Shown piece by piece: positions 29,877 to 49,025 of a DNA stretch of 64,000 nt (the first letter of the stretch is position 1; the number at the start of each line of letters is the position of its first letter). The stretch is from contig NC_057746.1 in assembly GCF_004010195.1 (NCBI RefSeq), forward strand, positions 11,930,236 to 11,994,235. The letters run 5' to 3'. A program made the position numbers and the translations under genes. The DNA comes from Chiloscyllium plagiosum (lineage: Eukaryota). The notes under the pieces were generated by a model. That model was not told the origin of the DNA. It ran no database searches and saw nothing but the letters and a program-made list of their open reading frames with translations.

Positions 29877-30013
29877 CTGGAAAAGAGAGATAAAGCAATG
29901 AAGAATTTGTTTATAATCAGGGACTTTCAGATTTTTTTTATTCAATAGCACACTTAAGGATTTCACAAAACATATTGGGCTGTTTGACATGTGAAAGATG
30001 TGATCATTCTCAC

Positions 30014-30084
30014 CTTCACCAGACTAACGGCTATAGAAAATACTCAGGAAGAACAAGGTGATGCACGTGGAAGCAGTTGTCCAG
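30014..30084 (-). pseudogene. IGHM: IgM TM1 exon, 3' part (WTTASTCITLFFLSIFYS^AVSLVK)
   Basis: CART-type transmembrane motif; donor AAG|GTGAGA. An apparent 5-nt deletion after FYS shifts the frame. The 5' part is in the gap. Confidence 0.85.
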
Positions 30085-30584
30085 NNNNNNNNNNNNNNNN
30101 NNNNNNNNNNNNNNNNNNNNNNNNNNNNNNNNNNNNNNNNNNNNNNNNNNNNNNNNNNNNNNNNNNNNNNNNNNNNNNNNNNNNNNNNNNNNNNNNNNNN
30201 NNNNNNNNNNNNNNNNNNNNNNNNNNNNNNNNNNNNNNNNNNNNNNNNNNNNNNNNNNNNNNNNNNNNNNNNNNNNNNNNNNNNNNNNNNNNNNNNNNNN
30301 NNNNNNNNNNNNNNNNNNNNNNNNNNNNNNNNNNNNNNNNNNNNNNNNNNNNNNNNNNNNNNNNNNNNNNNNNNNNNNNNNNNNNNNNNNNNNNNNNNNN
30401 NNNNNNNNNNNNNNNNNNNNNNNNNNNNNNNNNNNNNNNNNNNNNNNNNNNNNNNNNNNNNNNNNNNNNNNNNNNNNNNNNNNNNNNNNNNNNNNNNNNN
30501 NNNNNNNNNNNNNNNNNNNNNNNNNNNNNNNNNNNNNNNNNNNNNNNNNNNNNNNNNNNNNNNNNNNNNNNNNNNNNNNNNNNN
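30085..30584. other. Assembly gap (exactly 500 N)
   Basis: N run. The other gaps are 24485-25270 and 58397-58805. Confidence 0.99.
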
Positions 30585-30702
30585 TCGGATGCATCATTAA
30601 TGCACCCAACGATGTTTGTTCATTACCAATCAAAGCCTACAATTGATGTAACTGGATCTGGATTACACATGGGATCCTTTGTGCTTTAATCTCACCGCTC
30701 AC

Positions 30703-31011
30703 CTTTCTCCTTGTGGATGGAGTCTCTCAGCGGAGTCGGTAGATTCTGATGGTACACCACACATTCAAAAGTAACGCCACTCAGCCAGGCTTCAGTAGAA
30801 ATGTCTAATTTGCTGATCACGCTGCCGGGATTCTGTCCAGGTTGGTCAGCAATCTCTGATTTCAAAGGCTTCTTTTCTTGTGTCCAGGTTACGTTGATGC
30901 CAGAATGAAGATTAGACACAACGCAGGTTAACATCACCGTCGCCTCCAGTAAGACTTGTTCTACTGGCGGTGGGAGGATTTTAACAGTGTTCGCGTGGCA
31001 CTCGGTATCTT
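30703..31011 (-). CDS. IGHM: IgM CH3 exon, intact ([60 protein letters not shown])
   Basis: 309-nt open exon, both Cys and the Trp present, canonical AG/GT, phase 1-1. Part of the pseudogene. Confidence 0.93.
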
Positions 31012-32960: not shown

Positions 32961-33251
32961 CCTGGAGTGTGGTGATGTTTTTACTTTGAATGTTCCCTCC
33001 ATGAGTGGCCTGGCAGGTATAGACTGCGCTGTTGAACCATTCACCATAAGGGACCATCAGCCGACTCGTCACCGAGTCGTTCCCGTTTGCCTCACACACG
33101 GGAGACGTGAAGAAGCCAGAATCCAAGCGTCGGCCAATTTTCAACCAAATCACGGAGATTGACTTCGGATGGAAATCGATGGTTGCAAACTTGCTGCTTG
33201 CGATTTCTTCACTGGAGCTCACAGTAAGGAAAAGAGTTGGTTGGAGAATGT
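32961..33251 (-). pseudogene. IGHM: IgM CH2 exon ([21 protein letters not shown]^[26 protein letters not shown])
   Basis: 291 nt, phase 1-1 using acceptor TCCAG and donor GTAAGA. An in-frame loss of about 5 codons removes the first canonical Cys (expected ..IVCSIxDF..). Confidence 0.9.
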
Positions 33252-33369
33252 CTGGACCCTTAGGAACCACATTGCATAAATTATCTGACGAATTTCATAA
33301 CAAATACAATCAGTTCTCATATATCAAGGGTTCTTGTGGTTAATGGATACAAGAATCATAATTGTACAG

Positions 33370-37960: not shown

Positions 37961-38044
37961 TGATTCAGTGAAAACTGTTACAAATAATGCCTTATTCATA
38001 TTAATCCCAGATGCTCTGCTTATCTCAGTTTCCACAACACTCAT

Positions 38045-38350
38045 CTGGACATGGCATTTCTTTGCTCTTGTGTGACCCGCTGTGTTGGACGTCACAGTTG
38101 ATTTTGCTGGGGCAACTTACCGCTGACTCGGGCAGGGTTAACTGGCCGCTCAGTATGTAGGTTCCCTTCTGGTTTTTCGCTGATGGGTAAGTCTTCAATC
38201 CAGTCGTGATTAGCTCCCCACCTTTCTTCCAGGTTACCTTGGTGACGTCAGTGGAATAGTACATCGCCAAACAACCAAAGATCACAGAACCGGTGATGTG
38301 CTCCTGACAGGGGGAGACCAGACCATAAAGCGTGGGGGTAAACGGTGTCT
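38045..38350 (-). pseudogene. IGHM: IgM CH1 exon (ETPFTPTLYGLVSPCQ..IFGCLAM..VTWKK..YPS..INCDVQH..MPCP)
   Basis: Open 306-nt phase 1-1 exon with C1-set Cys/Trp/Cys. Acceptor TTGTAG is intact; donor is mutated (CCAG|ATGAGT). Confidence 0.93.
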
Positions 38351-38689
38351 CTACAATAGAATGACCAATTGAGCATGTTAGTTTCTGTTAATTTGACCTT
38401 ATCAGTTACTCAATTGTATCATCAGCTGTAAACGTTTGCCAGTATGTTCCCGCTGAAGTCTACAGCATAAATGGTTTTGTTTTTGTTTCCTACCAGTTGC
38501 TGATGATGATCATTGGTTCCCTCTTTATAAACATGCCCTCGACCTTGACCATTGCCATATAATTTTGGAAGAAGAACATCCTGATCCCACCCCAGTAACT
38601 GTTTGAAGATTACACTTTCTCTGGATTGCAAGTGATGAGCGGAGTGGTTTCACAAAATACCAACGAAGGAAATGCAGATTCATCGAAAT

Positions 38690-47175: not shown

Positions 47176-47691
47176 AAATATAGCACCGCAAGAAAATTTT
47201 ATGACAGTTTCTAACCTGCTTGTCATCAACAAAATTAACAAAATAAATGAGAAAATATAATCATGGTAAGAACATTATGTATACGGCGAATATATTCAAG
47301 AAATGAATAATATTATTTTAGCATATTTTAATCATGTTTGGTAATATTTCGAACATCTTTAAAGTCTTAGCATTTGTTGTTGATAATAAAACTCACAGTC
47401 AGGGTGTCACTGGCATTAAACATTATTTATACCTGGCTGATTAAGAGACATTAGGTGTTTCAAGTAGCCCAGCCACACAGAATGCCCCAAAAAAATACAC
47501 CAAGCAACTGACTCCATCATCACCGTTTTAACTATTTGCTGAGCCTAAACTGAAGTCTATAATCAGTCTGAACAAAAATCAATCCGAACCAAACCAAACT
47601 TACCAAAGAATGTGAGTTTCATTTAATTCAGAAATTAGTCACATTAATAGAAAGTTTTTAAAAAGTCACAAAGCAAGTTCAAGGGTTTTTC

Positions 47692-47767
47692 CTGAAGTCA
47701 CAGTCACCATGCTCCCTTGGCCCCAGTAGCCAAGAATATCACTGTGAGACACACTGTGTCAAATACT
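47692..47767 (-). other. IGHJ: Joined DH2-JH segment (47692-47739; ILGYWGQGSMVTVTS) preceded by a D-type 12-RSS (47740-47767)
   Basis: AGTATTTGA-12-CACAGTG, then ATAT running straight into TCTTGGCTACTGGGGCCAAGGG (WGQG motif). No D2 3' RSS, D2-J spacer or J 22/23-RSS. The J donor reads GAAAAA instead of GT. Confidence 0.88.
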
Positions 47768-48069: not shown

Positions 48070-48149
48070 GTTTTTTGTATGAGGATGTCGCTGTGCACAA
48101 CACTGTGACCCACTGTAGTATCACAATGATATAAACCAGTACACTTATT
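48070..48149 (-). other. DH1 segment (core 48108-48121 ATACTACAGTGGGT) with 12-RSS and 22-RSS
   Basis: AATAAGTGT-12-CATTGTG / D / CACAGTG-22-ACAAAAAAC. The 12/22 arrangement and TACTACAGTGGGT core are characteristic of shark D1. Confidence 0.92.
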
Positions 48150-48503: not shown

Positions 48504-48542
48504 TATTTTTGAATGGTCCAGACCTGGGTTCCTCTCGCTGTG
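48504..48542 (-). other. VH 3' RSS (23-bp spacer)
   Basis: CACAGCG + AGAGGAACCCAGGTCTGGACCAT (23 nt) + TCAAAAATA. Confidence 0.88.
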
Positions 48543-48846
48543 GTCTTCGATCTTCAGGCTCTTGTGGTCTTCGATCTTCAGGCTCCCCATGTCCAACGCG
48601 AAAATGTATTTTAATGTGTCTTTGGACGCCGCAGTAAATCGACCCTTAATCGCTGGTGCATAGTTATTGCTGGATGAACTACAGTAGCTAACCAGCACTC
48701 CAGACCCTGTCCCGGAACCTGTCGGACCCAGTCCATGTAGGTGCTGCCAAGATTGAACCCGCTGGTTTTACAGGTCAGTTTCAAGCTGCCTGCGGGACGG
48801 CCAGTCTTTGCCTCTGGCTGAGTCAAAACAACCTCCGACTGGACAC
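48543..48846 (-). pseudogene. IGHV: VH segment ([92 protein letters not shown])
   Basis: Ig V motifs LTC, WVRQ, GLE and RFT. A 1-nt deletion in the FR2 Trp codon splits it into ORFs 48611-48826 and 48477-48698. TAIYYCAR is missing and replaced by a duplicated SLKIEDH. Confidence 0.95.
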
Positions 48847-48974: not shown

Positions 48975-49025
48975 ATGACAAAAAAAAGTCAGTAGCAAAC
49001 TGAGAAAAAGTGTCGACACAATCAT
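48975..49025 (-). pseudogene. IGHV: VH leader exon (MIVSTLFLSLLLTF..), out of phase
   Basis: Hydrophobic signal peptide typical of shark VH leaders; donor GTGAAT at 48974. The exon is 51 nt (phase 0), while the V exon begins in phase 1 (AG|GT GTC CAG TCG). The slip lies in an 8-T run. Confidence 0.85.

Follow-up and report, generated by a model that had tools for sequence, protein, structure and literature searches.

The window, by which we mean the whole 64,000-nucleotide stretch of DNA analysed here, carries an immunoglobulin heavy-chain cluster on its minus strand. A leader exon (48975..49025) and a VH exon (48543..48846) are followed by an unjoined V RSS with a 23-nt spacer (48504..48542). 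The D1 coding segment (48108..48121), 14 nt long and identical to the commonest D1 among the paralogues (25/31), lies between a 5' RSS with a 12-nt spacer (48122..48149) and a 3' RSS with a 22-nt spacer (48070..48107). The V-D1 and D1-D2 distances are 421 and 368 nt, in agreement with the normal spacing of about 420 and 370 nt and the accompanying RSSs noted in the preliminary description. The order V(23)-(12)D1(22)-(12)D2(12)-(23)J, with a spacing of about 400 nt, is matched, the D2-J portion being taken from paralogues. The nonamer of the D1 5' RSS (48141-48149) is far from consensus in the window and in the paralogues, with about 4/9 consensus matches in all copies, and it might slow V-D1 joining relative to D2-J joining.

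The constant side of the window comprises three C1-set exons and a transmembrane exon. Cmu1 (38040..38351) and Cmu3 (30700..31010) are C1-set exons on the minus strand with open frames and approximate ends, and the top PDB matches of Cmu3 are mostly IgM constant regions (mu chains); Cmu2 lies at 32961..33260, and the 3' part of the transmembrane exon at 30010..30084, both also on the minus strand. A fourth constant exon and the secretory tail, which are present in paralogue L069, coincide in position with an assembly gap of Ns (30085..30584). We call the cluster putative shark IgM from its layout and from the layout in the literature. The duplicated unit to which it belongs (about 29400-64000) extends at least 15 kb upstream of V; its flanks are 84-89% and its V-J core 92-94% identical to paralogues, a difference suggesting that the core may be under constraint or subject to conversion.

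The feature of interest lies at 47692..47767. As previously described, and confirmed here on the minus strand, a D2 5' RSS (47767-47740) is followed by ATAT (47739-47736) and then by J coding sequence (47735-47692). The RSS is intact, with a nonamer at 47767-47759, a 12-nt spacer and a heptamer at 47746-47740. Comparison with paralogues identifies ATAT as the first 4 of the 15 nt of D2 and the sequence after it as JH without its first 4 nt, joined directly to the D2 remnant with zero inserted bases. The D2 heptamer and the J Trp codon are separated by 14 nt in the window vs 423 nt in all six unjoined paralogues measured. Global alignment with the unjoined paralogue L010 shows a single deletion of 409 nt, which begins 11 nt before the end of D2, takes in the D2 3' RSS, the intervening spacer and the RSS of J, and extends 4 nt into J, and a contig from a run of another organism (X18) has exactly 409 extra letters at the window's junction point.

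The preliminary description had read the site as a coding joint trimmed at both ends, free of obvious N nucleotides and lacking the D2 3' RSS, the D2-J spacer and the J RSS. All of this stands, and the alignment to unjoined clusters of the same genome that it proposed now sets the exact ends of D2 and J: 11 nt are missing from D2 and 4 nt from J, with no added base, no overlap and an end homology of 0, so microhomology was not needed. P nucleotides are absent from the window junction, and none would be expected since both ends are trimmed. As in a RAG coding joint, both RSSs and the intervening DNA are gone and the ends lie a few nucleotides inside the coding segments; moreover, the corresponding spacers in paralogues are 12 nt (D2 3') and 23 nt (J), in keeping with 12/23 pairing. 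The D2-J join in the window is a real coding joint, trimmed on both sides.

The join sits in a cluster that has lost its function, with lesions in leader, V, J donor, Cmu2 and transmembrane exon that the preliminary description does not mention. When aligned to L002 and L010, the leader has 2 extra nt in a run of Ts near 48987, which shift its frame. The VH exon has a 1-nt deletion near 48696, and its 3' end, including the YYC motif, is missing, the ~24 nt before it being repeated in tandem in its place; a Pfam search of the truncated V frame gave no match. The J splice donor (47690..47691) is GA, whereas 46 of 49 J segments have GT. Cmu2 has lost 15 nt in frame near 33180, and with them its first Cys, and the transmembrane exon has a 5-nt deletion near 30030. 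Because of these lesions the cluster, judged from its sequence, is a pseudogene from which no protein would be possible. The frameshifts, the loss of YYC and the GA donor also set it apart from a functional germline-joined gene of the IgM1gj kind. The earlier suggestion that V could still join the DJ unit is therefore sound only in part: the V RSS is present and RAG might still cut there, but no useful chain would result.

To place the junction in context, we sorted 68 fetched loci by hand, the window being L001; the family numbers about 50 paralogues, as judged from 47 J and 53 V pattern matches in the genome. In unjoined copies D2 is 14-15 nt long and the J spacer is 23 nt in 17/17 parsed. 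An exact genome-wide pattern search found a D2 5' RSS with a D2-J join in at least seven places, every junction being different, and an intact D2 3' heptamer in at least 26, while control patterns, including reversed ones, had 0 matches genome-wide. J is joined in 15 of the 49 J segments examined by hand-sorting (L046 was counted as unjoined since its J RSS remains).

All seven joined states occur in the genome according to the hand-sorting. The V-D-DJ configuration of the window is shared by L002, L028 and L003 (the last rearranged around it), and L031, which has a D2-J join, may belong here too. VD-DJ is found in L004 and L005, VD-D-J in L027 and possibly in L083 (cut short), and V-DD-J in L046. 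V-DDJ is represented by L032, L034, L036, L037 and L043; VDD-J by L038, L042, L077, L080, L081, L082 and L093; and VDDJ by L033, L040 and L045, all three out of frame. A DJ-only join had been regarded as a less common form, and a genome-wide count of V-D-DJ clusters had been proposed; that count (four clusters plus one possible) makes D2-J the commonest single-join state here, vs one or two for VD-D-J and one for V-DD-J, in small, hand-sorted numbers. The window join is an ordinary case of a known shark oddity that recurs repeatedly in this genome.

Several other arrangements were seen. On chromosome-scale contigs (C4, C8, C11, C16, C18, C26, C27, C33 and C37), 10/14 isolated copies were joined vs 3/14 in tandem arrays (Fisher p 0.02, post hoc and hand-sorted), an excess for which age may account. 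L002 (G000:C91689:8400-9580) is V-D-DJ; its V frame is open, its RSSs are intact and its donor is GT, and on these features it is the strongest candidate for a cluster with pre-joined DJ in which rearrangement still takes place. At L003/L053/L054 (G000:C8:41677408-41678500), a segment that runs from within the spacer of the V RSS to ~130 nt beyond J has the opposite orientation to V and the C-side intron, and J-intron sequence adjoins the coding end of V; aberrant RAG action, inversion or an error of assembly could each account for this. In L022 (G000:C70258), ~20 nt of V 3' sequence is copied into the D2 5' RSS spacer and a second piece of D1-D2 spacer is fused to the J RSS spacer. Non-coding deletions are present in L024, L025, L037 and L080, with loss of D1 in L024, most of V in L037 and the J heptamer in L080; the L024 deletion stops at the D1 3' heptamer, where a short repeat is present.

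In 7/7 D2-J joins the breakpoints are confined to the 15 nt of D2 and the 14 nt with which J begins; other deletions at these loci (L008, L024, L025 and L037) are scattered in position. Six of the seven D2-J joins lack untemplated bases when one substitution per piece is allowed, the exception being L028. By eye, L082 and L043 contain dinucleotides compatible with P nucleotides; in L038 a D2 allele explains the bases, and P nucleotides were rejected there. In the nurse shark, germline-joined NS4 light chains bear little evidence of TdT activity (PMC2193156), while somatic IgM joins carry N/P additions (PMC2435157). The scarcity of untemplated bases resembles the former and differs from the latter.

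A single origin of the D2-J joins was rejected for five clusters, which do not form one clade (p-AU 1e-5) in a tree of the D1-D2 spacer and J intron with 23 rows, from which L003 and L031 were omitted for too little sequence. A sister relation of L001 and L004 is not rejected by the same tree (p-AU 0.185), and taking 3 nt from the D2 side of the L004 junction gives that of the window, with differing J alleles and V-D1 states in the two clusters. The trimming figures (11 and 4 nt) could therefore include a later deletion from an L004-like junction. Gene conversion among paralogues can distort such a tree.

With regard to inheritance, no unjoined near-twin of the window was found among the best 40 of the 47-72 candidates scored per DNA search, although a fragmented assembly such as this one could lack an unjoined allele. 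The best identities to scored unjoined copies were 94.3% for the V-D1 spacer, 94.3% for the D1-D2 spacer, 92.3% for the J intron and 94% for Cmu3; the searches scored the best 40 of 58, 47 and 72 candidates, and copy numbers from them are lower bounds. Junctions are shared by diverged copies elsewhere in the family, namely by L032, L034 and L036 (96-97% alike) and by L042 and L077 (96%), so these joins have been duplicated within the genome. L004 and L027 (~85% alike) have an apparently common V-D1 joint, and one of the pair later gained D2-J. A duplicate of the window's own junction was not found in the genome. No same-species reads were found among public runs, in which the best share of the window's words was 0.15 and none reached half; in the four runs compared, every contig had paralogue-type letters with many differences from the window, and no listed piece spans the junction. 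A contig of X1 (depth 5.6) has a J-D1 distance short enough for a joined copy and was not counted. Since no unjoined copy exceeds ~94%, junctions are common to diverged copies and N bases are scarce, the join is likely inherited through the germline.

An assembly could instead have captured a somatic D2-J join from a lymphocyte. Nurse-shark thymocytes and spleen do contain V-D-DJ as a somatic intermediate, and all seven joined states of this genome match the somatic list in the same paper (PMC2435157). However, most reads decide what an assembly shows, and each clone has a somatic junction of its own. The missing unjoined twin among the best-scored candidates, the absence of N bases, the pseudogene status of the cluster and the duplication with divergence of other joins in the genome argue in the same direction, and somatic rearrangement of nurse-shark pseudogene clusters was not seen on Southern blots (PMC2435157). 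We regard somatic capture as very unlikely.

An ordinary germline deletion, independent of RAG, might also have fused D2 to J by chance. Many deletions unrelated to RSSs exist in these clusters, some with short end repeats, including the one at the window's V 3' end, and the window junction has no P bases. Yet the D2 and J heptamers are 11 and 4 nt away from its breakpoints, the ends share no homology, and all seven such joins terminate in the same two short segments, which makes a chance deletion highly improbable. Misassembly, either by joining two paralogues or by collapse of the D2-J spacer, has equally little to recommend it. The family comprises ~50 copies at 90-97% identity in a fragmented assembly, and odd hybrids occur in L022, but the deletion is not flanked by repeats, the assembly is free of N runs between 30585 and 58396, the junction mimics trimming, and both flanks are equally diverged from all paralogues (5 and 13 private changes). 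Finally, the alternative named in the preliminary description, a one-D cluster in which a 12-spacer RSS is native to J, agrees with the local appearance of the sequence but is refuted by paralogue alignment and has next to no probability, as the 12-RSS and the preceding 290 nt correspond to the D2 5' RSS and the D1-D2 spacer (93% to L010) and unjoined J spacers are 23 nt in 17/17.

We therefore regard as very probable a reading in which D2 and J of a dead shark IgM cluster were fused, likely through RAG cutting in a germ cell, and in which the fusion has likely been inherited since then. RAG would have paired the 12-spacer D2 3' signal with the 23-spacer J signal; 11 nt of D2 and 4 nt of J would then have been trimmed and the ends ligated without TdT. 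The event would have occurred in the germline, independently of the other D2-J joins, and the fused D2-J was likely passed on as a neutral scar. The germ-cell RAG origin proposed earlier is thus likely on indirect sequence features, RAG itself being inferred.

Partly germline-joined IgM clusters have long been known from the horned shark and skate, described as 'V DD-J, VDJ, V D1-D2J' (PMC2193153), and germline IgM forms have been listed as VD-J, VD-DJ and VDJ (PMC5192425). Like the clusters of horned shark and of little skate, the window has a V-D1-D2-J-C minicluster from which RSS-bounded DNA has been removed, with unjoined clusters in the same genome; unlike them, it joins only D2 and J and leaves V and D1 free, a state that neither paper clearly gives as a germline form, although 'V D1-D2J' is ambiguous and may mean VD-DJ (PMC2193153). 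The nurse shark NS4 light chains likewise show independent joins among close copies, trimming and little sign of TdT, but they are single V-J joins, 4/6 in frame and some expressed in pups (PMC2193156), whereas the window has a partial heavy-chain join in a dead gene and 3/3 VDDJ copies here are out of frame. In nurse shark IgM of Groups 2 and 4, the V-D-DJ intermediate found somatically has the same configuration and no fixed joining order; it carries N/P bases, is unique per cell and is rarer than V-D1 joins in Group 2 (PMC2435157), whereas the window join lacks N bases and sits in an assembled genome. IgNAR clusters have pre-joined D segments, and the available portions of PMC8692893 give no IgM join states; those of PMC12227049 and PMC2192082 contain nothing further on germline IgM joins. 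We found no explicit description of a germline V-D-DJ or of a genome-wide census in the literature covered (outside subscription journals), and this negative is weak evidence of absence.

A single locus of this kind, a dead gene with a scar of known type, carries little weight; the value lies in the genome-wide set of readable junctions. Heavy-chain germline joins have been described as hard to dissect since the copies are too different, and germline joining as infrequent (PMC2193156). Here, close paralogues allow junctions to be read base by base, so that one could test directly how often and in what order RAG joins segments in germ cells and how far this depends on TdT, and L002 could reveal whether a pre-joined DJ cluster completes rearrangement in B cells. 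Taken together, the data raise the possibility, to which we give slightly less than an even chance, that in one IgM family this genome preserves a recent and almost complete fossil record of RAG activity in the germline: all seven joined states, about 13 different D2-J and about 12 V-D junctions and copies mostly 90-97% alike. Joining would follow no fixed order, add few N bases and proceed in steps from one duplication to the next (VD-D-J to VD-DJ), with D2-J as the commonest single join. If so, RAG cutting in germ cells would be frequent, probably ongoing and a main route of IgM cluster death, and it would be measurable as joined/unjoined polymorphism between animals.
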